Part shown: positions 108 through 41,273 of the stretch, piece by piece | Layout: every line of letters starts with the position of its first letter | Numbering within the stretch: the stretch's first letter is position 1 | The notes under the pieces: generated by a model | Seen by the model: the letters and a program-made list of their open reading frames with translations, nothing else | Told to the model about the DNA's origin: nothing | Database searches by the model: none | From: a virus | DNA: 41,273 nt | Virus record (IMG/VR): IMGVR_UViG_3300028584_000124 | Coordinates: 1-41,273 of that record | Direction: 5' to 3' (one strand) | Made by a program: the position numbers and the translations under genes

Positions 108-1217
108 ATGGCTGTTCGACAGCGCGGCAAGACCTGGCAGGTGGACGTCAAAGTCCAGGGCCAGGACAACCCCACCGGGGAGCTGGTGCGGGTCCGGCAG
201 AACTTCAAGACCGAACGCGAGGCCATCCGCATGGAGCTGCTCATACGGGCGGACATCATGAGGACCGGCCGGTGGAGCCCAGAGCTAGAGGTCGAGGGCG
301 TCGTCCAGCTGAAGAACAAGCGCGCCGAGGGGACCCTCAAAGCCGCCCTGAAGCTGGCCTGGAGCCACCCCACCAAGGGCTGGCAGCACACCAAGGACGG
401 CAAGGGCCAACACCGCAACGCCGAGATGGTCGTGGAGTTTCTCGGCGAGGACACCCTGTGCATCGAGATCACCCACCTCGACTTCGACAGGGCTGCTGCC
501 TACTTCGCCGAGAAGCACAACAGCTCCGACACCGTCACCCGCAAGCTCCAGGCCTTCTACCGGGTCCTGTGGTTCGCCCAGCGGCAGGGCTGGATCAGAG
601 CCCGCCCAGAGTGGGACCGCCCGACACCTGGGAAGGCCCGAGAGTACATCTTCACGCCTGAAGTCGAGGCCGAGGTCATCGCGTACTTCCGCCACATCGA
701 AGGCAATGACGAGCTGGCCGATATGTTCAAGGTCGGCATCGAGACCGGCGGCCGACTTGGTGAGCTACTGGCCGCCCGCGTAGAGGACTGCTCCCTCACC
801 GACAGCTTTATGGTCATCTACGGCGCTGTCCGCGAGGACGGCCGGAGAGACACCAAGAACGCCGAGAGCCGCACCGTGATCCTCACCGACGCCGCCAAGG
901 AAGTCCTGGCCCAGCGCATCAAGGCCATCGGCAAGCGGGGCCTCCTGTTCCCCAACATGAACAGCGAGCACGTCAGCCGGGACATGCGTATGGCCAGGGA
1001 GCACATGGGCGAGGAAGGCAACACCGAGTTCGTCTTCCACGCCACCCGCCACACCTGCGGAACACGCATGGCCGAGCGGGGTGTCCCCCTGAACGACATG
1101 ATGGACCAGCTAGGCCACAAGACTGCGGCCATGACCCGCCGCTACATCAAGCTGTCACCTGCAGCCCGCCGCGCGACCATCCTAGCGGCCATGCAGCCAC
1201 GTCTCACGGGGTCCTAA
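108..1217 (+). CDS. int: tyrosine recombinase / phage integrase
   Basis: ATG 108 follows a GGAG that overlaps the upstream TAG. The C-terminal catalytic signature is HATRHTCGTRMAERG ... LGHKTAAMTRRY (HxxR ... Y). The ORF-track start at 60 overlaps the upstream gene and is rejected. Confidence 0.95.
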   Translation: MAVRQRGKTWQVDVKVQGQDNPTGELVRVRQNFKTEREAIRMELLIRADIMRTGRWSPELEVEGVVQLKNKRAEGTLKAALKLAWSHPTKGWQHTKDGKGQHRNAEMVVEFLGEDTLCIEITHLDFDRAAAYFAEKHNSSDTVTRKLQAFYRVLWFAQRQGWIRARPEWDRPTPGKAREYIFTPEVEAEVIAYFRHIEGNDELADMFKVGIETGGRLGELLAARVEDCSLTDSFMVIYGAVREDGRRDTKNAESRTVILTDAAKEVLAQRIKAIGKRGLLFPNMNSEHVSRDMRMAREHMGEEGNTEFVFHATRHTCGTRMAERGVPLNDMMDQLGHKTAAMTRRYIKLSPAARRATILAAMQPRLTGS

Positions 1218-1219
1218 CC

Positions 1220-1238
1220 GATTAGGTGGCATCTACGC
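1220..1238 (+). promoter_or_regulatory. motif B copy (GATTAGGTGGCATCTAC-GC), candidate phage-RNAP promoter
   Basis: Matches 14 of 17 positions of AATTGAGTGGCATCTAY, which also occurs at 5107, 15086 and 36615. It lies in the gap after int. Confidence 0.4.
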
Positions 1239-1267: not shown

Positions 1268-1352
1268 TGGTGGCGGCTCCGGGGATCGAACCCGGATACC
1301 CTTAGGTGGCAGATTTTAAGTCTGCTGCGTCTACCAGTTTCGCCAAGCCGCC
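1268..1352 (-). tRNA. tRNA-Leu (anticodon UAA), class II, CCA encoded
   Basis: The reverse complement reads GGCGGCT-TG-GCGAAACTGGTAGACGC-A-GCAGA-CTTAAAA-TCTGC-CACCTAAGGGTAT-CCGGG-TTCGATC-CCCGG-AGCCGCC-A-CCA. This gives a 7-bp acceptor stem, a 5-bp anticodon stem with TAA at positions 34-36, a long variable arm and a TTCGATC T-loop. Confidence 0.9.
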
Positions 1353-1415: not shown

Positions 1416-1676
1416 ATGCGCAAGGCCCTGACCATTGGACTGCTCCTGGCGTCGGCACTCGGCGTCGGGGCGGCGGTAGCGGCGAAGACCATCGAGATGA
1501 CCACGCCCTATGAAGCGACCTATCGCTCCCCGACCGGGACGTGGGTCGCTTCCGTTTGGCAGGACCCCGGCACTGGCTGTCAATACTACTTCAACGGCGG
1601 CCCGCTAACGCCCCGCTTGAACCGGGATGGCAAGCCGCACTGCCCCGGTGTCCCTGTCAGTCCTTACCCGGACTAA
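1416..1676 (+). CDS. small secreted protein (signal peptide, two Cys), function unknown
   Basis: GGAGAAG RBS precedes the ATG. The N-terminus MRKALTIGLLLASALGVGAAVAAK looks like a Sec signal with an AxA site. High GC3. Confidence 0.6.
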   Translation: MRKALTIGLLLASALGVGAAVAAKTIEMTTPYEATYRSPTGTWVASVWQDPGTGCQYYFNGGPLTPRLNRDGKPHCPGVPVSPYPD

Positions 1677-1896
1677 ATCTGTCGACCCGCGCCCAGTAGG
1701 ACCGCGAGTAGGTCAGGTAGACCACGAGAAGCACACCAGGCACGGACCCTAGCGCCACCGCCTGGAGGTTCTCCGGTATCCATCCGCTGACCACGAAGCC
1801 AGCCACCACCCAGCCGATACCGACCTTGGTCAGTAAGCCCCGCAGCTTGTCGGGGTGGATGCCGTGGTCTGGGTTTGCTGTCGGTGTCGAGGGCAT
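1657..1896 (-). CDS. small two-TM membrane protein (only - strand protein gene)
   Basis: On the - strand AGGAG lies 6 nt upstream of the second ATG (1896). There are two hydrophobic segments (IGWVVAGFVVSGW; VALGSVPGVLLVVYL). It overlaps the convergent 1416..1676 gene by 20 nt. Confidence 0.55.
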   Translation of the reverse strand: MPSTPTANPDHGIHPDKLRGLLTKVGIGWVVAGFVVSGWIPENLQAVALGSVPGVLLVVYLTYSRSYWARVDRFSPGKD

Positions 1897-1948
1897 GGCC
1901 ATCTCCTGGGCGAAAGCCCTTCTAGCTCATCATCGCAATGGAGGGAAC

Positions 1949-2140
1949 ATGATCGACTTTTCCCCGGACAGGGACGAGGTCACCGCGCTGCGGACAGAAA
2001 GCGGCATGGGCCTACAAGAGTGCCAACGCCGTATTCTCGGCCGCAACATCCGCGCCGCGCTCTATGGTGACCGGCGAGCGGACCCCGCCGTCCTCCAGGC
2101 GGTCCTGCTGGAAGTCGTGGATCGCTTGTTCCCCGACTGA
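1949..2140 (+). CDS. hypothetical small protein
   Basis: GGAGGG RBS lies 4-5 nt before ATG 1949 (MIDFSPDRDEV...). It is divergent from the - strand gene. The segment VTALRTESGMGLQECQRRI loosely resembles a UBA / EF-Ts N-terminal helix pair, but the call is weak. Confidence 0.5.
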   Translation: MIDFSPDRDEVTALRTESGMGLQECQRRILGRNIRAALYGDRRADPAVLQAVLLEVVDRLFPD

Positions 2141-2260
2141 CGTGGCCCTGGCCGTGTCCCTTGAGGCCCCATCCGGTGGCCTTGAGGCCCTGGGGCCACA
2201 CCATAACCACTTGAAGTAACAGGAGAATTGCCCAGCCGTAGACGGACTTAAAATCCGGGG

Positions 2261-2281
2261 ATTGCACTTGCGCAATCGCTA
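2261..2281. promoter_or_regulatory. TTGCGCAA palindromic motif, site 1 of 10 (ATTGCACTTGCGCAATCGCTA)
   Basis: Core at 2268..2275, in the gap upstream of the RNAP gene. The sequence is identical to site 37415..37435 and is the exact reverse complement of 15068..15088. TTGCAC ... GCTATG flanks resemble -35/-10 elements. Confidence 0.6.
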
Positions 2282-2354
2282 TGTGGCCCCGAAGAAACTT
2301 AGCTAGTTCAATAGTTTGCCCACCACTCAGGTGGCTGACATCCGACGCGCATAC

Positions 2355-2391
2355 GTGGCCCTGCACTGAGTGGCCCTACGCGCGTGGCCCT
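2355..2391 (+). repeat. three GTGGCCCT octamers at 15- and 14-nt spacing
   Basis: GTGGCCCT occurs at 2355, 2370 and 2384. Related copies are at 2142 (CGTGGCCCTG) and 2283 (GTGGCCCC). All lie in the non-coding stretch before the RNAP start. Confidence 0.7.
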
Positions 2392-2411
2392 GTACCCCAA
2401 GGAACGCCCTC

Positions 2412-5084
2412 ATGACTGCCAACCAAGCCATGGTTGATCCCAGCCTGATGACCGCCCTCGACGAGATCACTGTCGAGCTTACCGACCCCGCCATGGACCG
2501 CCAGTTTGAGCTGGAGGCCGAGATGATCGAAGACGGACGCCACAAGTTCTGGGACCGCATGGAGCGCGCCCGCCCTGGAGTGGACGCGGAAGGCCGCGCC
2601 CGCGAAGGCGAAGAGAGCCGCGCCCCTACCTCCCAGTGCCTCATGCGTCTCTCGCTGAACCCAGTGAAGGACGGCATCGCCGCGTTCATCGCCGCCGCGT
2701 CCTCCGGGAAAGCTGGCCGCAAGCACGCCGCCCTGAAGCACCTGAAGCTGGTGGACCACGAGACCGCCGCCTTCCTGGCCCTCAAGTCCTGCCTCGACGC
2801 CTTCAGCCTGTCCCTTACCGAGGGGGTCCTGTGTGGACGCATCGGCCGCCTGATCGAAGACGAGGTCCGCCTCCGCATCTTCGAGGACAAGGCTGCGGGT
2901 CTGTTGCGCGCGATCCGCAGCCGCTTCGACACCAGCAACTTCAAGCACCACCGCCGGGTACTCAATGCCCTCGCCAAGAGGCACAATGTGGACCTGGGGG
3001 AGCGCTGGTCTGACGTCGAGGCCCTGCACGTCGGCGCTGCCCTCCTGACCCAGGTCATCGAGCGCACCGGCCTGTTTGAGATCGTGATGGTCCAGCGCGG
3101 AGGGGCCGACCGCCACGTCACCGTCCAGCCCACCGCAGCCACCGTGGCATGGGTCCAAGCCCGCGACGGCGCTGCCCAGTTCCTCCTGCCGACCTACATG
3201 CCGATGGTCGTCCAGCCCAAGCAGTGGACCTCGCCGACTGGTGGCGGCTACCGCTTCGGCCTGGCCCGCCGCCTCCGCATGGTCAAGAGCCGCAGCCCCG
3301 GCTATCAGGCCGAGCTGAAGGAGTGGGATATGCCCCTGGTGTACCGCGCTGTGAACGCGCTGCAGGACACGCCCTGGCAGGTGAACACGGACGTCCTCCG
3401 CTACCTGTCCCCTGCCGCGCGCGCAGGTCACGAGTTCGCTGGCCTCCCCTCCACCAAACAGGCCACCGTGCCGCCCGCCCCGGCTGGCATCCCCGCCGAC
3501 AAGGAGAAGCGCACCGAGGCACAGGCCCTGGCCCTCAACGCCTGGAAGTCGCAAGCCCGCGACATCCACGTGGAGAACATCCAGCGCCGCTCCAAGGGTC
3601 TCGTGGTGGCCCGCACCCTGGCCATCGCCGAGAAGTACGCGGAGGAGCCCTGCATCTACTTCCCGTACACCCTGGACTTCCGGGGCCGTGCCTACCCGGT
3701 GCCGTCCTTCCTCCAGCCGCAGGGCTGTGACTACCAGAAGGCCCTCCTGCGGTTCTCCAAGGGCAAGCCCCTCGGTGAGCAAGGCGCGGCCTGGTTGGCC
3801 ATCCACGGTGCCAACCTGATGGCGGACTGCCCTCTCTCCGGTGCGAAGCTCGACAAGGCTGCGCTCCAGACCCGAGTGGACTGGGTGTTCGCCAATGAGC
3901 ACCACATCGTGGCCGCAGCGGCTGACCCCGACGCCAGCGACTTCTGGCTGAAGGCAGGGGGCGGCGAGAGCTGCTGGCAGTTCCTGGCGTTCTGCTTTGA
4001 GTGGGCGGGCTACGTCCGCGAGGGGGCATCCTTCGAGAGCCGCCTCCCCATCGCCCTGGACGGCTCCTGCAACGGCCTCCAGCACTTCTCCGCCATGCTG
4101 CGGGATGAGGTGGGCGGTGCTGCCGTCAACCTCGTGGCCCACAAGCTGCCCGCCGACATCTACATGGAGGTCCGCAACGCCACCCTGGAGCAGATCAAGA
4201 TCGACGCCGCCTGTGCCCTCGTTGAGGTGCCGGACGCGCCGACCGACAAGGAAGCGCTGAAGGCCGAGGACAAGTCGTTCAAGGATATGCGCGCCCTGAA
4301 CGCCGACACCCACGCAGCCCGCGCCTGGATGGGCACCAACCAGCTGGACCGGGACCTGTGCAAGCAGCCTGTCATGACGATGCCCTACGGGTCCAAGCAG
4401 TTCGGCATCCGCCAGCAGCTCGCCCGCAAGCTCGCCAAGAGGGGCTTCGAGTTCATCGACCAGTCAACCGGGGAGGTCTCCGAGGGCTGGAACGAATGTG
4501 GCTACCTCTCCAAGGTCATCTGGGGAAGCCTCGGGTCCGTGGTCGTCAAGGCCCGCGAGGCGATGGACTGGCTCCAAGCCTGTGCCCGCCTGGCAGCCGC
4601 CGAGCAGCAGCCCATCAACTGGGTCACGCCGGACGGCTTCTGGGTCCAGCAGAACTACCGGGAGGCCCACCTGAAGAAGGTCAAGACCCAGGTCGCGGGC
4701 ACCCTGTTCTGGCCCCGAATGGCCGAGGAAGCCGACACCGTGGACAAGCTACGCCAGCAGAACGGCGTGGCTCCGAACTTCGTCCACTCCATGGATGCCA
4801 CCGCCATGCGCGCGTGCATCAACATGTCGTTGGACAACGGGATCGAGGACTTCGCCATGATCCACGACAGCTACGCGGTCCACGCCGCCGACACCGAGCT
4901 GTTCTACGACTGCATCCGCCAGAGCTTCATCGCGATGTACGAGCAGGAGGACGTGCTGGCCAACTTCAGGGCCAATCTGGAAGCCCAGCTCTCGGAAGAG
5001 AGTGTCGAGCTTCTCCCCGCCCCGCCGCTGCCGGGAACCCTTGATCTTCAGGGGATTGCCTGCTCGGACTTCTTCTTCGCCTAG
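2412..5084 (+). CDS. T7-like single-subunit DNA-dependent RNA polymerase
   Basis: 890 aa. Signatures are DGSCNGLQHFSAM, PVMTMPYGSKQFG, HDSYAV and a C-terminal SDFFFA (compare T7 DGSCSGIQHFSAM, IHDSFGT, DFAFA). ATG 2412 follows AAGGAA. The GTG at 2370 from the ORF track lies inside the GTGGCCCT repeats. Confidence 0.97.
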   Translation: MTANQAMVDPSLMTALDEITVELTDPAMDRQFELEAEMIEDGRHKFWDRMERARPGVDAEGRAREGEESRAPTSQCLMRLSLNPVKDGIAAFIAAASSGKAGRKHAALKHLKLVDHETAAFLALKSCLDAFSLSLTEGVLCGRIGRLIEDEVRLRIFEDKAAGLLRAIRSRFDTSNFKHHRRVLNALAKRHNVDLGERWSDVEALHVGAALLTQVIERTGLFEIVMVQRGGADRHVTVQPTAATVAWVQARDGAAQFLLPTYMPMVVQPKQWTSPTGGGYRFGLARRLRMVKSRSPGYQAELKEWDMPLVYRAVNALQDTPWQVNTDVLRYLSPAARAGHEFAGLPSTKQATVPPAPAGIPADKEKRTEAQALALNAWKSQARDIHVENIQRRSKGLVVARTLAIAEKYAEEPCIYFPYTLDFRGRAYPVPSFLQPQGCDYQKALLRFSKGKPLGEQGAAWLAIHGANLMADCPLSGAKLDKAALQTRVDWVFANEHHIVAAAADPDASDFWLKAGGGESCWQFLAFCFEWAGYVREGASFESRLPIALDGSCNGLQHFSAMLRDEVGGAAVNLVAHKLPADIYMEVRNATLEQIKIDAACALVEVPDAPTDKEALKAEDKSFKDMRALNADTHAARAWMGTNQLDRDLCKQPVMTMPYGSKQFGIRQQLARKLAKRGFEFIDQSTGEVSEGWNECGYLSKVIWGSLGSVVVKAREAMDWLQACARLAAAEQQPINWVTPDGFWVQQNYREAHLKKVKTQVAGTLFWPRMAEEADTVDKLRQQNGVAPNFVHSMDATAMRACINMSLDNGIEDFAMIHDSYAVHAADTELFYDCIRQSFIAMYEQEDVLANFRANLEAQLSEESVELLPAPPLPGTLDLQGIACSDFFFA

Positions 5085-5088
5085 AGCA

Positions 5089-5125
5089 TGTCGATTGCGC
5101 AATCGCAATTGAGTGGCATCTACGC
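5089..5125 (+). promoter_or_regulatory. composite site: TTGCGCAA motif (site 2) followed by motif B AATTGAGTGGCATCTAC-GC
   Basis: Palindrome core at 5095..5102 and motif B at 5107..5123, with a 12-nt offset identical to the 15068..15104 composite. It lies directly after the RNAP stop. Confidence 0.6.
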
Positions 5126-5802: not shown

Positions 5803-5822
5803 TAGCGATTGCGCAACCGCAA
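5803..5822. promoter_or_regulatory. TTGCGCAA palindromic motif, site 3 (TAGCGATTGCGCAACCGCAA)
   Basis: Core at 5809..5816, about 20 nt upstream of the SSB start. Confidence 0.6.
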
Positions 5823-5835
5823 CACAGAGAACCAC

Positions 5836-6537
5836 ATGACCGAAACCACCAAGAAGCCCCGCCTGGAAACCGCCGTCTCCCCGCGAGGCGTGTTCAACTT
5901 CCCGTGGCTCAACAAGCCGGACACCAAGTTCAACAAGGAAGGCGTCTACACCACCGGCCTCCTCGTGAACGCTGGCGCGGCCGCCCCCTTCATCGCCAAG
6001 ATCGACGCCGCCATCCAAGCCAAGCTGGACAGCCAGGTCGCCGAGATGGTGGCCAAGGGTGGCAAGGCCATCGCTGACAGCAAGAAGGTCACGACCCACG
6101 CGCCGTACCAGCCCGAGTACGACAAGGAGGGCAATGAGACCGGCCGCATCAAGTTCACCGCCAAGGTCAATGCCGAAGGCAGCAACGACAAAGGGGACGT
6201 GTGGTCCAACAAGCCCGCGATCTTCGACGCAGCTGGCACCCCGACCACGGTGGCCATCTTCGGCGGCTCCGAGGGCAAGGTCAGCGTCCAGCTGGTCCCG
6301 TACTACTCGGCCAAGGACAACCAAGTCGGCATCACGCTGCGCCTGAAGGCCGCCCAGGTCCTGAAGCTGGTCAGCCGCAACAGCGACAGCGCCGAGGGCT
6401 TCGGCTTCGGCTTCGGTGCCGAGGACGGCTACGTCGCCGACGAGCAGGACGAACCGGCCCCCAAGGGCGAGGACTTCAGCACGGGTGACGACACCGCCTC
6501 GGACGACACCAGCTCCAAGTCGAACGACGACTTCTAG
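5836..6537 (+). CDS. T7 gp2.5-like single-stranded DNA-binding protein
   Basis: GGSEGKVSVQLVPYY and ITLRLKAAQVLKLV align with T7 gp2.5 GGSKLKVKYSLVPY and VKLQLESVMLVEL. The acidic C-terminal tail ends ...SNDDF, with a terminal Phe as in gp2.5. Confidence 0.85.
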   Translation: MTETTKKPRLETAVSPRGVFNFPWLNKPDTKFNKEGVYTTGLLVNAGAAAPFIAKIDAAIQAKLDSQVAEMVAKGGKAIADSKKVTTHAPYQPEYDKEGNETGRIKFTAKVNAEGSNDKGDVWSNKPAIFDAAGTPTTVAIFGGSEGKVSVQLVPYYSAKDNQVGITLRLKAAQVLKLVSRNSDSAEGFGFGFGAEDGYVADEQDEPAPKGEDFSTGDDTASDDTSSKSNDDF

Positions 6538-14471: not shown

Positions 14472-15070
14472 GGCTCATCCACCTGGCTACCTGCCCGGTC
14501 ATGACCAAGACCACCCGCCCCGTGGTGTCCACCGGCGGCGACCCCTTCGGCGACACCGGAACGGAAGACCTCCGCCGAGGCGCTACAGCTACCCGCTTCC
14601 TCGACACGTCCATCGTTGCCGCGCATCTTGCCGGGGCCGAGCTGCTGAAGCGCTACACCGCCACGCAGGGCACCGCCGCCACGCGCTACCCGGACGACAA
14701 CCCCAAGACCATCCACGGGTTCGCCAAGCCGTCCATCTCCCTGGTCCCTCCCGTGGCTATCGTGGAGATGGCCAGGGCCTTCCGCCACGGCGCTGACAAG
14801 TACGGCCCCGCCAACTGGCGCGACAAGCCGGTCACCATCCAGACCTATATCGACGCCGCCTTGCGCCACCTGCTGGCCATCGCGGACGGCGAGGATGTGG
14901 ACCCGGAGAGCGGCTGCTTCCATGCCGCCCATGTCGCCAGCTGCATGGCGATCATCATGGACGCCAAGGCCAGCGGCACCCTTCAAGACCGCCGCCCCAC
15001 CCCCGGCCAGGCCGCCGAGCTGATCCGCCAGTACACCGCAGCCACCGCCCCTCCCACGCCCGCAGTGTAG
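14426..15070 (+). CDS. DUF5664-like (MazG-type all-alpha dATP/dGTP pyrophosphohydrolase-like) protein
   Basis: KPSISLVPPVAIVEMARAFRHGADKYGPANWRDK...YIDAALRHLLAIADGEDVDPESGCFHAAHVASCMAIIMD matches the remembered DUF5664 pattern (KP...L.PP.AL..LA.V..FGA.KYG..NW..G...Y..A..RHL.A...GE..D.ESG..HLAH). AAGGAG lies 9 nt before ATG 14426. An alternative start is at 14501. Confidence 0.6.
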   Translation: MGTRRTDCPHCGVGLGLIHLATCPVMTKTTRPVVSTGGDPFGDTGTEDLRRGATATRFLDTSIVAAHLAGAELLKRYTATQGTAATRYPDDNPKTIHGFAKPSISLVPPVAIVEMARAFRHGADKYGPANWRDKPVTIQTYIDAALRHLLAIADGEDVDPESGCFHAAHVASCMAIIMDAKASGTLQDRRPTPGQAAELIRQYTAATAPPTPAV

Positions 15071-15104
15071 CGATTGCGCAAGTGCAATTGAGTGGCATCT
15101 ATGC
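15068..15104 (+). promoter_or_regulatory. composite site: TTGCGCAA motif (site 4) followed by motif B AATTGAGTGGCATCTAT-GC
   Basis: Palindrome core at 15074..15081 and motif B at 15086..15102, with the same 12-nt offset as at 5089..5125. It lies at the boundary between the replication and structural modules. Confidence 0.6.
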
Positions 15105-37339: not shown

Positions 37340-37414
37340 CCTGCTGGACCTTGTGACAGCCCGTCAAGCCTTACGGTGCGGGCGTCTGTCTGTTTTCTTT
37401 CATCGGATATGCAG

Positions 37415-37435
37415 ATTGCACTTGCGCAATCGCTA
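37415..37435. promoter_or_regulatory. TTGCGCAA palindromic motif, site 5 (ATTGCACTTGCGCAATCGCTA); candidate leftmost early promoter/operator
   Basis: Core at 37422..37429. The 21-mer is identical to site 1. TTGCAC and GCTATG flank the palindrome. It is the first site upstream of the early gene block. Confidence 0.6.
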
Positions 37436-37591
37436 TGGGTTCGATAGACAGTCAATACCGGACGGCGGAGACGCCAACCGGGCGGGGCTCCAGGGCCTCG
37501 GGTCTTTGACATTGTGAAGAGGTCGCGGGGTTCTAGCCTCGCCTGATGAGCCCTAGCAGGGCGAAACCTCAACCTTATTGCGCCTCAAGCC

Positions 37592-37612
37592 TAGCGCTTG
37601 CGCAATTGCAAT
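37592..37612. promoter_or_regulatory. TTGCGCAA palindromic motif, site 6 (TAGCGCTTGCGCAATTGCAAT)
   Basis: Core at 37598..37605, immediately upstream of the GGAG RBS and start of the first early gene. A half-site-like TTGCGCC lies ~20 nt upstream. Confidence 0.6.
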
Positions 37613-38035: not shown

Positions 38036-38056
38036 ATTGCACTTGCGCAATCACCA
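38036..38056. promoter_or_regulatory. TTGCGCAA palindromic motif, site 7 (ATTGCACTTGCGCAATCACCA)
   Basis: Core at 38043..38050. The left arm is identical to sites 1 and 5, and the right arm is degenerate. Confidence 0.55.
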
Positions 38057-38752: not shown

Positions 38753-39025
38753 ATGCGTCAAGCTATCGTCACCAAGTGGCACGGCCCTACCAACTACAGC
38801 GGCTCGCGTATCAAGGCCAAGGCTGCAGCGGGGTCTATCACCGTCCCGTGGGACTACGCCTTGAACGTCGCAGACAACCACACAGCCGCCGCCCGCGCCC
38901 TCGTTGAGAAGCTCGAATGGGCGGGGGTCTGGTCGGGCGGCGGGATGCCCAGCGGTGACGGCTATGTCTTCGTTGACGCGTCGGGGGCGGAGCCCTTCAC
39001 CGGCACTCCCGCGCCCCGCGCGTAG
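38753..39025 (+). CDS. hypothetical protein
   Basis: GGAG RBS. 90 aa (MRQAIVTKWHGPTNYSGSRIKAKA...). High GC3. Confidence 0.6.
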   Translation: MRQAIVTKWHGPTNYSGSRIKAKAAAGSITVPWDYALNVADNHTAAARALVEKLEWAGVWSGGGMPSGDGYVFVDASGAEPFTGTPAPRA

Positions 39026-39042
39026 CGGTTGCGCAATCGCCC
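39023..39042. promoter_or_regulatory. TTGCGCAA palindromic motif, site 8 (TAGCGGTTGCGCAATCGCCC)
   Basis: Core at 39029..39036. The site starts on the stop codon of the upstream gene. Confidence 0.55.
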
Positions 39043-39588: not shown

Positions 39589-40134
39589 ATGACCACCCAA
39601 AGCCCCATCCGCCTGTCCCGCGAAGAACTGACCGCGCTGGACCCGTGCGACCAAGACCGCCGCCTGGCCCTGTTTGGCCGCAGGAAGTACCTCACGGCCC
39701 GACTGGCGATGGAAGCCGGGGCGACTGTGAGTGATCTATTGTGGGTCGCTGGACGACTTGGGCGCAAAGACCTGTGCGTGAAGTTCGCCCTGGCCTGTGC
39801 CCAGCGGACGGCCCACCTCAACCCAGACCAGCGTGTCCAAGCAGCGTTGGACGCCACGGCGGCTTGGCTTGCCAATCCTTGCGAGGACACCCAGTCGGCG
39901 GCGTGGTCGGCGGCGGAGGCGGCGTGGTCGGCGGCGAGGTCGGCGGAGGCGAGGTCGGCGGCGGAGGCGGCGTGGTCGGCGGCGGCGAGGTCGGCGGCGG
40001 AGGCGGCGTGGTCGGCGGCGAGGTCGGCGGAGGCGAGGTCGGCGGCGGAGGCGGCGTGGTCGGCGGCGGAGGCGGCGTGGTCGGCGGAGCAAGAGGAACA
40101 GAAGGTCATCTTCCTGTCGATCTTCGACGCCTAG
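39589..40134 (+). CDS. early protein with C-terminal AAWSAA(E/R) tandem repeats
   Basis: 181 aa. A helical N-terminal domain is followed by 65 residues composed only of A, S, W, E and R (SAAWSAAEAAWSAARSAEARSAAEAAW...). Confidence 0.7.
   Translation: MTTQSPIRLSREELTALDPCDQDRRLALFGRRKYLTARLAMEAGATVSDLLWVAGRLGRKDLCVKFALACAQRTAHLNPDQRVQAALDATAAWLANPCEDTQSAAWSAAEAAWSAARSAEARSAAEAAWSAAARSAAEAAWSAARSAEARSAAEAAWSAAEAAWSAEQEEQKVIFLSIFDA
39895..40089 (+). repeat. in-frame tandem repeat built from five codons (TCG, GCG, TGG, GAG, AGG)
   Basis: It has 21-nt (GCGGCGGAGGCGGCGTGGTCG) and 48-nt units. All six frames are open across it, which accounts for the spurious Arg/Gly/Pro-rich ORFs in the track. 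Confidence 0.9.
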
Positions 40135-40138
40135 CCCA

Positions 40139-40159
40139 TAGCGCTTGCGCAACTGCAAG
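40139..40159. promoter_or_regulatory. TTGCGCAA palindromic motif, site 9 (TAGCGCTTGCGCAACTGCAAG)
   Basis: Core at 40145..40152, a few nt after the stop of the repeat-protein gene. Confidence 0.55.
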
Positions 40160-40162
40160 ACA

Positions 40163-40222
40163 CCCTCGGTTCCACATGGAGCCGGGGGCCTTCTGTCCCA
40201 GCCGCTGGACACCCCAACGGCT
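40163..40222 (+). repeat. modular intergenic stem-loop element, copy 4
   Basis: Hairpin CCCTCGG / CCGGGGG (40163..40188), CT-rich spacer CCTTCTGTCCC, then a weaker hairpin AGCCG / CGGCT (40200..40222). Confidence 0.5.
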
Positions 40223-40241
40223 GCGCTTGGAGGCCCTCACC

Positions 40242-40358
40242 ATGAACACAAACCTCATCAACCGCTTGCCGCTTCTAGCCCTGGAGTTCCTCGTGATCTC
40301 CCTCGGCTTTGCCGCCTGGATCGCCTTCGTGGTCGTCCTAGCGAGTGCGTGCGGTTGA
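40242..40358 (+). CDS. small single-TM membrane protein (38 aa)
   Basis: GGAGG lies 8 nt before ATG 40242. Sequence MNTNLINRLPLLALEFLVISLGFAAWIAFVVVLASACG. Confidence 0.5.
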   Translation: MNTNLINRLPLLALEFLVISLGFAAWIAFVVVLASACG

Positions 40359-40736
40359 CCTAGCGTCTGGCGTACCGCTGCTCGCTAATGGGCAGCTCCG
40401 CCACAAACGTTAACGGGTACGACCGCTTTCGGCGCAGGATCATGAGAATACTCGGTCACCGCGTAGGCGGGGGTGGCATACAACCACACCCTGTCCTAGC
40501 GTGCGATTTCTCAGCGGTCTTAGCGTGGTCTCTCGGCTCCGCCACTATTGGCCAATGCTGGGGGGTATTATTGTGAAAGCGAGAAGAAACTGTGCGTAAA
40601 CACACAAGTCGGGACTTCTATATTTCCCTATTCGGCCTATCGGCCCACGTGGAGTTCCACGGGTGGACCGGGGGATGGGCCTTCACCCGCAGAGCGTCCT
40701 ACTTGCACATTGCGGGGGGATGCTTCAATGCTCACC

Positions 40737-40760
40737 TATCGCAATCGCGCAATCGCAAGC
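40737..40760. promoter_or_regulatory. TTGCGCAA-family motif, site 10 (TATCGCAATCGCGCAATCGCAAGC; core TCGCGCAA)
   Basis: Core at 40745..40752 with one mismatch, ~30 nt upstream of the MarR-like start. CGCAAT is repeated in tandem around the core. Confidence 0.5.
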
Positions 40761-40790
40761 GCGTCACCGTCGAAGAGTGGATCGCTGCCA

Positions 40791-41117
40791 ATGGCAACCA
40801 AAGACGTGAACCTGAAGGCCCAGCAACTCAGTAGGGTCATGGAGGCGCTTCTCTCCCTGGATGGCAATATGCCCGTCATCCAGGGTCTCATCTTTCTCTA
40901 CGTCGCATCTCAGGATCGCGGAACGGGTACTGGGCCGAACGGCCTGGCCATCGCCGAGGCCTTAAAGATCGACGCCACCCGCGTCTCCCGCAACCTGACC
41001 CGCCTCACCAGCGCCGGTCTCATCGCGCGGGAGATGGGGGACATGGGGCAGAAGCGGAACCACATCACCAAGGCCGGATGGTCCTACGTGGAGCGTCTAG
41101 CCTCCTTCATCAACTAG
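40791..41117 (+). CDS. MarR-like winged-helix transcriptional regulator (candidate prophage repressor)
   Basis: 108 aa. LAIAEALKIDATRVSRNLTRLTSAGLIAREM...RNHITKAGWSYVE has the MarR-type recognition helix plus wing layout. Its stop lies 8 nt before the int start. The longer ORF-track start (40548) would place motif site 10 inside coding sequence. Confidence 0.6.
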   Translation: MATKDVNLKAQQLSRVMEALLSLDGNMPVIQGLIFLYVASQDRGTGTGPNGLAIAEALKIDATRVSRNLTRLTSAGLIAREMGDMGQKRNHITKAGWSYVERLASFIN

Positions 41118-41125
41118 GAGCTGAC

Positions 41126-41273
41126 ATGGCTGTTCGACAGCGCGGCAAGACCTGGCAGGTGGACGTCAAAGTCCAGGGCCAGGACAACCCCACCGGGGAG
41201 CTGGTGCGGGTCCGGCAGAACTTCAAGACCGAACGCGAGGCCATCCGCATGGAGCTGCTCATACGGGCGGACA
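41126..41273 (+). CDS. int: integrase gene, 5' end only (exact copy of 108..255)
   Basis: It is part of the 255-bp window-end overlap and is truncated by the window edge. Confidence 0.9.
   Translation, partial: MAVRQRGKTWQVDVKVQGQDNPTGELVRVRQNFKTEREAIRMELLIRAD

Follow-up and report, generated by a model that had tools for sequence, protein, structure and literature searches.

We analysed a viral contig of 41,273 bases (IMG/VR record IMGVR_UViG_3300028584_000124, positions 1 to 41,273; hereafter the window, with a G+C content of 64.6%), in which the gene of a short MarR-like regulator and a tyrosine integrase gene lie upstream of a T7-type single-subunit RNA polymerase (RNAP) gene. T7-like phages are usually regarded as strictly lytic, a view that bears on phage therapy and on ecological models. 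The evidence supports the region as a lysogeny-type module, in which a winged-helix regulator and an intact tyrosine integrase, apparently in one operon, precede the RNAP gene; we consider the feature real and probably functional. The ends of the contig overlap exactly over 255 bp (bases 1-255 are identical to 41019-41273), leaving 41,018 bases of unique sequence. The contig is a circular assembly cut within the lysogeny cassette, and hence some positions also have coordinates in a first copy. A phage terminal repeat was ruled out as the identity of the end duplication, which lies inside the coding sequence of the regulator and the integrase.

The apparent regulator-integrase operon and its neighbours

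The regulator gene (40791..41117, plus strand) encodes 108 amino acids (aa), from an ATG at 40791 to a TAG stop at 41115-41117. The integrase ATG follows at 41126-41128 (position 108 in the first copy), after a gap of 8 nucleotides (nt; 41118-41125). The Shine-Dalgarno sequence of the integrase gene, AGGAG (41116..41120, plus strand), overlaps the stop codon of the regulator and stands 5 nt from the integrase ATG. A preliminary description of this DNA, made from the sequence alone, had reported both the 8-nt spacing and the overlap, and both can be read directly in the sequence. We reached relatives of the phage through integrase and RNAP searches of bacterial contigs. In one of them (L006) the TAGGAG...ATG junction with its 8-nt gap recurs, and in others the gap is 1-24 nt.

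The start at 40791 is correct, as judged from a step in the G+C content of third codon positions (GC3; 0.82 from 40791 versus 0.53 in the upstream extension of the frame), from the lengths of the homologues (108-112 aa), and from the alignment of this ATG with the ATGs of two relatives. Versions of the open reading frame (ORF) of 129 aa and 189 aa were ruled out by GC3 and by the alignment of the relatives.

A word-indexed protein search returned nothing besides the 108-aa protein itself, and tblastn against deposited phages gave no match; an exhaustive HMMER search found 13 further homologue clusters at 35-50% identity. The protein matches a PHROG annotated as "transcriptional regulator" (3.4e-8), and 14 of the 14 members of the family match Pfam MarR_2 (PF12802; best 4e-13). 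Compared with the PDB, the family profile retrieved MarR-family structures, among them TM0816, PA3341, MepR and SlyA (~2e-7). The AlphaFold model built with the family alignment (pLDDT 86.6) has the topology H-H-H-H-E-E-H, with helices (H) at residues 2-23, 29-41, 51-58, 62-74 and 94-104 and strands (E) at 78-82 and 88-92, and the MarR fold is present in it (helices 1-3, recognition helix 4, a beta wing and helix 5). Nearly all of the 50 Foldseek hits listed belong to the MarR family (PF01047 / PF12802; MepR, MarR, MexR and SlyA at the top, and OhrR also among them), with a best TM-score, normalised to the query, of 0.76. Profile, AlphaFold and Foldseek thus agree on the MarR-like winged helix of the preliminary description, and a non-DNA-binding family is not indicated. 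The canonical full-length MarR architecture (~140-150 aa, with a C-terminal dimerisation helix) is not found in the 108-aa protein; the regulators of phages LUZ100 (109 aa) and RHph_I20 (115 aa) are equally short. The accurate label for the protein is short MarR-like, and it is a candidate prophage repressor.

One homologue of the regulator, P0009 (JGI sample 3300059473), carries an N-terminal extension resembling an integrase N-terminus (MSIRSRGRSFMVDV...). Its gene stands directly after a serine recombinase (Resolvase) gene and not after a tyrosine integrase gene, which may reflect a recombinase swap that left an integrase fragment behind.

The tyrosine integrase gene (108..1217, plus strand; its first 148 nt are repeated as 41126-41273) encodes 369 aa and matches PF00589 (1.4e-22; 80.8 bits versus a cut-off of 27.1) and phrog_1 (1e-47). 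The catalytic residues R216, K250, H311, R314, H337 and Y346 are all present and invariant in comparison with a 53%-identical relative, and R216, H311, R314, H337 and Y346 align with the conserved motifs of XerA (4a8e). The integrase is thus intact, and inactivity is not indicated. Deposited phages with a homologue include RHph_I20 (39.7% identity), LUZ100, Ralstonia phages, Bordetella phage BB8 and Pelagibacter phage HTVC105P. The nearest phage homologues are all in phages that have a T7-type RNAP gene or are described as T7-like, and most phages with an integrase homologue were also found among the RNAP matches. At the nucleotide level the region had no match among deposited phages, and neither the regulator family nor the integrase gave hits when IMG/VR was scanned.

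Along the plus strand the integrase gene is followed by a tRNA-Leu(UAA) gene, three small ORFs and the RNAP gene, in the order previously described. The strands differ from that description, which had all genes co-oriented: the tRNA lies on the minus strand, and the second of the small ORFs probably does. The tRNA-Leu(UAA) gene (1268..1352, minus strand), convergent with the integrase gene, is complete with an encoded CCA (ARAGORN; Rfam tRNA, 56.6 bits). The first small ORF (1416..1676, plus strand; 86 aa; GC3 0.78-0.79) appears accessory, with a signal-peptide-like N-terminus and weak matches to DUF6440 and to PHROGs of unknown function. The second (1657..1902, minus strand; 81 aa), between the tRNA and the phage attachment site (attP) described below, has hydrophobic stretches, a GC3 of 0.78-0.79 and a G+C content at second codon positions (GC2) of 0.48-0.49. 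No plus-strand ORF runs across 1700-1825 to compete with it, and it had no match in Pfam or PHROG family searches. It is probably a moron, and a candidate for expression from the prophage, for example in superinfection exclusion. The third (1949..2140, plus strand; 63 aa; GC3 0.78), also accessory, is without a family match. The RNAP gene (2412..5084, plus strand; PF00940, 8e-99; PF14700) is the presumed target of the switch. Downstream of it the genes follow the T7 order, with primase-helicase, DNA polymerase, a head-tail adaptor in the portal position, and terminase. The regulator itself is co-oriented with the integrase and the lytic genes, and the earlier conclusion that a lambda-like divergent switch is absent stands.

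The RNAP shares 66% identity with a homologue encoded in a Caulobacter segnis chromosome, and 58-65% with those of Phenylobacterium contigs. Because the RNAP homologues at 58-66% identity carry these annotations, the host is probably a member of the Caulobacterales.

The attachment site and integrated relatives

The position of attP was located from L010, a locus on a 72-kb metagenome contig with the closest integrase (82% identity) and the closest regulator (63%). In L010 the 15-mer CGGACTTAAAATCCG is repeated directly at 1105 and 11488, bracketing the block that runs from the RNAP gene to MarR, Int and tRNA. The same 15-mer is found in the window at 2243..2257 (plus strand), where it has the form of a tRNA-Leu(UAA) anticodon stem-loop. 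The sequence left of this core aligns with the right junction of L010 on its phage side, with its GTGGCCC repeats; the sequence right of it aligns with the left junction, also on the phage side, where a palindrome is followed by the RNAP gene.

Repeats flank the core on both sides. The P arm (2142..2200, plus strand), which aligns with the L010 right junction, contains repeats of the GTGGCC(C/T) type, and the P' arm (2283..2392, plus strand) contains four GTGGCCC(C/T) repeats upstream of the RNAP ATG, with counterparts at 1230 and 1242 in L010 and at 5863, 5948 and 5962 in L018. Of the 62 copies of the motif GTG(G/T)CC(C/T) in the window, 8 fall inside 2142-2392. Analogous repeats occur in two other relatives (GTGACCC in L012 and GTGCCCT in L006). 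We read the GTGGCCC-type repeats as candidate arm-type integrase sites. An attP is expected to have a core common to the junctions of integrated copies together with arm-type repeats, and both were found here.

The tRNA-Leu gene had been taken as the attachment site, and this view has to be revised. The full gene (1268-1352) was ruled out as attP, as it stays within the integrated element in L010; the actual core, 15 bp at 2243-2257, is a separate site 0.9 kb downstream of it. A minus-strand tRNA-Leu(UAA) is found at the same place in L010, 55 nt after the integrase gene, and also beside the integrase gene of LUZ100. By analogy with related phages, the carried tRNA-Leu(UAA) probably replaces a host tRNA-Leu(UAA) split by integration. 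We infer both this role and the natural attB (the bacterial attachment site) of the window phage. An integrated copy would be expected to show the hybrid junctions host + ...CGGACTTAAAATCCGGGGATTGCAC on one side and ...GCCGTAGACGGACTTAAAATCCG + host on the other.

Another contig, L014 (Ga0070688_100023234), contains at about 2914-3000, in reverse, what appears by eye to be the 3' two-thirds of a tRNA-Leu(UAA), including GTAGACGGACTTAAAATCCG. A 20-mer that includes the core of the window stands there ahead of what resembles the variable arm, T arm and acceptor end, although ARAGORN calls no tRNA, and unrelated sequence of low G+C content precedes the whole. The site resembles the junction of a different element inserted into this part of a tRNA-Leu.

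The most complete integrated relative was found in two loci, L006 and L018, which are two parts of one 107-kb metagenome contig; the same prophage is present in assembly GCA_900155025.1. It spans ~42.6 kb, has selB on one side and the 3' half of selC on the other, and both of its junctions are intact; its MarR and Int are 50% and 53% identical to those of the window. On the left, selA, selB and the 5' half of the host tRNA-Sec are followed by the core, the operator-like palindrome described below, the RNAP gene and so on to the terminase gene. On the right, early genes are followed by MarR, Int, two small genes, a phage-borne mimic of the 5' half, the core, the 3' half of the host tRNA-Sec and host genes. 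The core at both junctions is CGGACTTCAAATCCG, one base different from that of the window, and is the anticodon stem-loop of tRNA-Sec. Joining the host halves of selC rebuilds an attB with an intact tRNA-Sec. The hybrid tRNA at the right junction scores under the Rfam threshold, as expected for a patched gene.

In a third relative, L012, whose proteins are named Phenylobacterium sp. by the National Center for Biotechnology Information (NCBI), the terminase and early genes are followed by a MarR gene (39% identity) and an Int gene (52%), after which come the host genes for PI-PLC, RecA and AlaS. The expectation that such a phage would be found integrated in bacterial genomes therefore holds for these relatives (L006/L018, L010 and L012). 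In L010 and in the selC prophage, MarR-Int lies at one end of the element and the RNAP gene at the other. The same separation would apply to a prophage of the window phage because attP lies between the integrase and RNAP genes.

L010 is itself one of two occurrences of a mini-element of ~10 kb (L010 1105-11502; L017 5300-13600) that keeps only the genes for RNAP, a 78-aa protein, an HTH_39 protein, a 756-aa protein, a GDSL lipase, an 81-aa protein and MarR. The L010 copy additionally has amidase, Int and tRNA-Leu genes and the 15-bp att core on both flanks; in L017 the integrase gene is missing and a transposase gene adjoins. The contexts of the two differ, the metagenome contig in one case and the Caulobacter segnis chromosome in the other. 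Two readings fit the mini-element: a prophage that decayed and was kept twice, or a satellite-like element with a retained T7-type RNAP.

Operator-like palindromes and the proposed switch

An operator-like set repeated through the genome, of the kind that the preliminary description had raised, is present. A scan allowing up to 3 mismatches located the 16-bp palindrome GCGATTGCGCAATCGC at 10 sites in the window, against 0.27 expected, and none of 100 shuffled sequences reached 10. The half-site is G-C-R-N-T-T-G-C, with GC..TTGC nearly invariant, and the full form is GCRNTTGC-GCAANYGC. The site closest to the regulator, the variant GCAATCGCGCAATCGC (40741..40756), ends 34 nt before its ATG and is a candidate autoregulatory site; a TCGCGCAA variant is found at the same distance from the MarR ATG in the window, L010 and L017. 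Another palindrome (2264..2279) lies 6 nt from the att core, on the side of the RNAP gene, and exactly this spacing is found in the window, L010 and L018. Beyond the RNAP gene there are palindromes at 5091..5106, at 5805..5820 (intergenic in the replication-gene region, just past a stop codon, with the next in-frame ATG 15 nt further on), and at 15070..15085, ahead of the structural genes. The early region contains the remaining five, all in intergenic positions: at 37418..37433, at 37594..37609 (just upstream of the first GC3-supported early gene), at 38039..38054 and 39025..39040, and at 40141..40156, where a 655-nt mostly non-coding stretch upstream of the regulator starts. A stretch of 24 nt, GATTGCACTTGCGCAATCGCTATG, is identical around the att-core palindrome (2260-2283) and around the first early one (37414-37437), the latter in a non-coding region of ~1.1 kb after the terminase gene.

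Some of these sites adjoin promoter-like sequences. The motif TGAGTGGCATCTAYGC, which we infer to be a promoter of the phage RNAP, has 4 matches in the window against 0.34 expected. One of them, TAGGTGGCATCTACGC (1223..1238, plus strand), lies after the integrase gene and resembles an SP6 promoter by eye. The others are at 5110 (just past the RNAP gene), 15089 (ahead of the head-tail adaptor gene, the first of the structural block) and 36618 (past the terminase gene), and those at 5110 and 15089 are directly abutted by the palindromes at 5091 and 15070. Upstream of the regulator, the stretch 40700..40740 (plus strand) has conserved counterparts ahead of the MarR genes of L010 and L017 and may act as a promoter, with CTTGCA at 40702-40707 as a -35-like element. 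A sigma-70 scan upstream of the regulator reported only a different, weak site (40597-40624), and generic sigma-70 and terminator scans did no better than shuffled controls.

Copies of the palindrome are also present within the phage portions of L006, L010, L012 and L018, loci whose regulators keep an R-(V/I)-S-R-N recognition helix. This co-occurrence bears on the question of what the palindromes are. They could be bound by another phage or host protein, act as RNA-processing hairpins, or be parts of promoters, with MarR controlling only its own operon. Most of them stand directly after stop codons in intergenic gaps, like the processing sites of T7, where the RNase III sites between early genes are RNA-processing hairpins. 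Moreover, 7 palindromes share an asymmetric 13-nt extension upstream, and two are fused to promoter-like motifs. However, it is the sequence that is conserved and not the pairing: half-site positions 3-4 vary without compensation across the dyad, and between 5 and 8 of the 8 possible pairs form, which argues against RNA hairpins and for a protein-binding site. As to the protein, the motif keeps company with regulators of the same recognition helix in four other loci, one palindrome lies within the conserved region upstream of the regulator gene, and a PHROGs scan, the only one made for this, showed no other DNA-binding gene among the five early ORFs that it covered. A 16-bp dyad also fits a MarR-family dimer. 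We therefore consider it quite unlikely that the regulator is not the protein that these sites serve, and regard them as its putative operators.

The palindrome next to the core raises another possibility, namely that the main role of the winged-helix protein is in recombination, as a directionality or architectural factor similar to Xis, and that it is not the immunity repressor. Lambda Xis is itself a winged-helix protein. The regulator is tightly coupled to the integrase gene, its position upstream mirrors that of xis and int in lambda, and the spacing of exactly 6 nt between palindrome and core is kept in three phages. Nevertheless, 9 of the 10 palindromes lie at a great distance from attP, among the early intergenic gaps or next to promoter-like motifs; the protein has a five-helix MarR core and not a small Xis or MerR-type domain; and the palindrome upstream of its own gene suggests transcriptional autoregulation. 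A mainly Xis-like function appears very unlikely to us, and a secondary role of the regulator at attP may exist. A stronger version of the latter is conceivable but doubtful. In it the operator network is wired into both transcription and recombination, and the same protein silences the RNAP promoters and marks or modulates the integration site; its basis is the 6-nt spacing shared by three phages whose regulators are only 50-63% identical, together with the fusion of other sites to the presumed phage promoters. If this version is true, temperate T7-like phages would gain a first defined pair of repressor and operator, in a genetically testable host group (Caulobacter).

We favour the reading of the region as the lysogeny cassette of a temperate T7-like phage, with the MarR-like protein as a palindrome-binding repressor, and assign it a probability of roughly 0.7. 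The MarR-like protein and the integrase would be made from one early transcript. A dimer of the regulator would bind the 16-bp palindromes, and the site before its own gene would provide autoregulation, limiting its synthesis. The occupied sites would block early transcription and the phage promoters, in such a way that RNAP would be neither made nor used and the middle and late genes would stay silent. The integrase would recombine the 15-bp core with the matching anticodon arm of the host, aided by the GTGGCCC arm repeats. Integration would then separate the RNAP gene from every upstream phage promoter, leaving the operator 6 nt from the core to guard it.

Several results weigh against this reading. 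With respect to the protein, the 108-aa sequence alone scores 24 bits with MarR_2, under the cut-off of 27, and the MarR assignment is made because of the family-level and structural evidence and not because of this score. It is ~35 residues shorter than canonical MarR proteins (the matched structures have 135-147 aa) and lacks the last dimerisation helix, and given the missing helix the formation of a dimer is assumed. It contains no cysteine, and a Pfam scan found neither a peptidase S24 domain nor any other; the induction routes of lambda-type repressors and of oxidation-sensing MarR proteins are excluded for these reasons. With respect to the operators, several palindromes are placed 15-25 nt before start codons or just past stop codons, which is unusual for promoter operators and implies a roadblock or other roles. 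With respect to integration, the attB rebuilt from L010, the sole integrated element with the same core, is not a tRNA according to ARAGORN. Scans of genome collections by integrase alignment and with the 3' 30 nt of the phage tRNA-Leu found nothing, including no species-representative genome with those 30 nt, and because both were empty the host tRNA was not identified. A metagenome scan with a 20-mer from the P arm and core returned two unrelated contigs only, one of them L014.

The results on integration also touch a further alternative, that the cassette is an evolutionary relic and the phage effectively lytic, carrying MarR-Int without stable lysogeny. No integrated copy of the exact window phage was found in the scans, a point that counts against the favoured reading as well, and of the closest integrated relatives (L010 and L017) truncation has left only remnants. 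LUZ100, the best-studied relative, has the same cassette and never yielded stable lysogens (PMC10134795). On the other side, the catalytic residues of the integrase are intact, and GC3 in both genes is at the level of functional ones; conservation extends to arms, core and operators; the selC prophage is a full-length relative of 42.6 kb with intact junctions; and the integration of pelagiphages has been shown experimentally (10.1101/410191). A relic is, in our view, improbable, and a temperate phage repressed by its MarR-like protein remains the preferred explanation.

Some further observations concern the early region. In the early leader, the sequence at 37517-37572 (plus strand) matches the type III hammerhead ribozyme (Rfam RF00008). 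This match precedes the palindrome at 37594 by 22 nt and the first coding-like early gene by ~50 nt. It covers the whole model at 35.4 bits versus a gathering score of 48.5 (E 5e-5 for the 4.8-kb search) and includes the catalytic core CUGAUGAG, CGAAAC and the GUC cleavage triplet; no such match was found in the examined stretches of three related loci. The ribozyme might serve in the processing of early transcripts, a task of RNase III in T7. A G+C-rich tandem repeat (39848-40111), with units of 9-15 nt that can be read as an 84-nt family with 15 registers, lies within the early ORF 39589-40134, which matches PHROGs of unknown function. Finally, RNA folding in the stretch 40135-40790 (655 nt, mostly non-coding by GC3) goes well beyond that of shuffled sequences (z = -4.55), and a possible ORF for a 40-aa hydrophobic peptide was noted by eye at 40241-40363.

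Comparison with known temperate cassettes

The preliminary description held that no dedicated repressor candidate was known in T7-like phages of this type. This is contradicted by LUZ100 (PMC10134795), by pelagiphages (10.1101/410191) and by the annotation of RHph_I20, and this kind of cassette is already known from the pelagiphages (2018/19), from Boeckman et al. 2022, from LUZ100 (2023) and from the GenBank record of RHph_I20. The window has the features of such a cassette: a single-subunit RNAP gene with an integrase gene upstream, a short MarR-like regulator homologous to those of LUZ100 and RHph_I20, and an attP between the integrase and RNAP genes.

In LUZ100 a MarR-like regulator lies directly upstream of the integrase gene and is co-transcribed with it from a host promoter, a tRNA-Leu gene stands next to int, and a phage promoter precedes the RNAP gene (PMC10134795, Putzeys et al. 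2023). In the model of the same authors, who credit Boeckman et al. 2022 and also cite Zhao et al. 2019, the regulator decides between lysis and lysogeny by acting at sites around the RNAP promoter and repressing RNAP expression (PMC10134795). The window has in common with LUZ100 a T7-like genome, a regulator of ~108-109 aa, a minus-strand tRNA-Leu(UAA) beside int, the position of the cassette immediately ahead of the RNAP gene and, separating the two, a phage promoter, in the window a putative one. The integrases are homologous (27% identity, E 8e-29). Pairwise BLAST of the regulator with LUZ100 gp10 was not significant, and the homology is visible by profile comparison only, where hhalign gives a probability of 97.5% (E 8e-12) for gp10 and 97.2% for the MarR protein of RHph_I20 (EVC11_026). 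The two phages differ in gene order (MarR-tRNA-int in LUZ100, that is, gp10, tRNA-Leu and gp11, versus MarR-int-tRNA in the window) and in host (Pseudomonas versus probably Caulobacterales), and no copy of the window palindrome was found in the early region of LUZ100. Actual lysogeny and repression by the regulator are unproven even for LUZ100.

The HTVC019P-type pelagiphages also have MarR and int upstream of RNAP, with attP in the non-coding gap between int and RNAP and cores in the middle of tRNA genes (10.1101/410191). Some have a tRNA-Leu between int and RNAP that "is likely used instead" of the split host gene, and in others the host tRNA is patched with a phage-borne 5' half (10.1101/410191), as in the selC prophage. 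They differ from the window phage in their marine, AT-rich hosts, and their integrases are only ~30% identical to that of the window; no operator set is described for them in 10.1101/410191.

The Rhizobium phage RHph_I20 (MN988539), an isolated T7-like phage, has the closest RNAP (40%) among deposited phages and, at the identity given above, also the closest integrase. Its "MarR family transcriptional regulator" ends 1 nt before the "integrase protein", which is followed by RNAP. In contrast to the window, it has no tRNA gene in the cassette and a second MarR-family gene further upstream. The window palindrome was not seen in a search of its cassette, and a search for short palindromes in the cassettes of LUZ100 and RHph_I20 found no motif shared by the two.

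The arrangement can also be compared with lambda Int and attP, which likewise combine a tyrosine integrase, a short core, arm-type repeats on both sides and a small DNA-binding gene upstream of int. Unlike lambda, the window has neither a divergent cI/cro switch nor a self-cleaving repressor; its repressor candidate is co-oriented with the lytic genes, and the target of the switch would be the gene of the phage RNA polymerase.

Beyond the literature the window may add three things, namely the palindrome with its ten sites, the fusion of some of these to promoter-like motifs, and the constant distance of 6 nt from the att core, although Boeckman et al. 2022 may already describe such sites. The picture drawn by the pelagiphage, Boeckman and LUZ100 studies is unchanged. 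To this the window contributes a clean example of the temperate T7-like branch, probably from the Caulobacterales, with a legible set of parts: a candidate repressor, ten candidate operators, candidate phage promoters, a mapped attP and integrated relatives that include the complete selC prophage. It thereby offers concrete sequences for a direct test, lacking in the earlier studies, of MarR-operator binding and of the repression of a T7-type RNAP.

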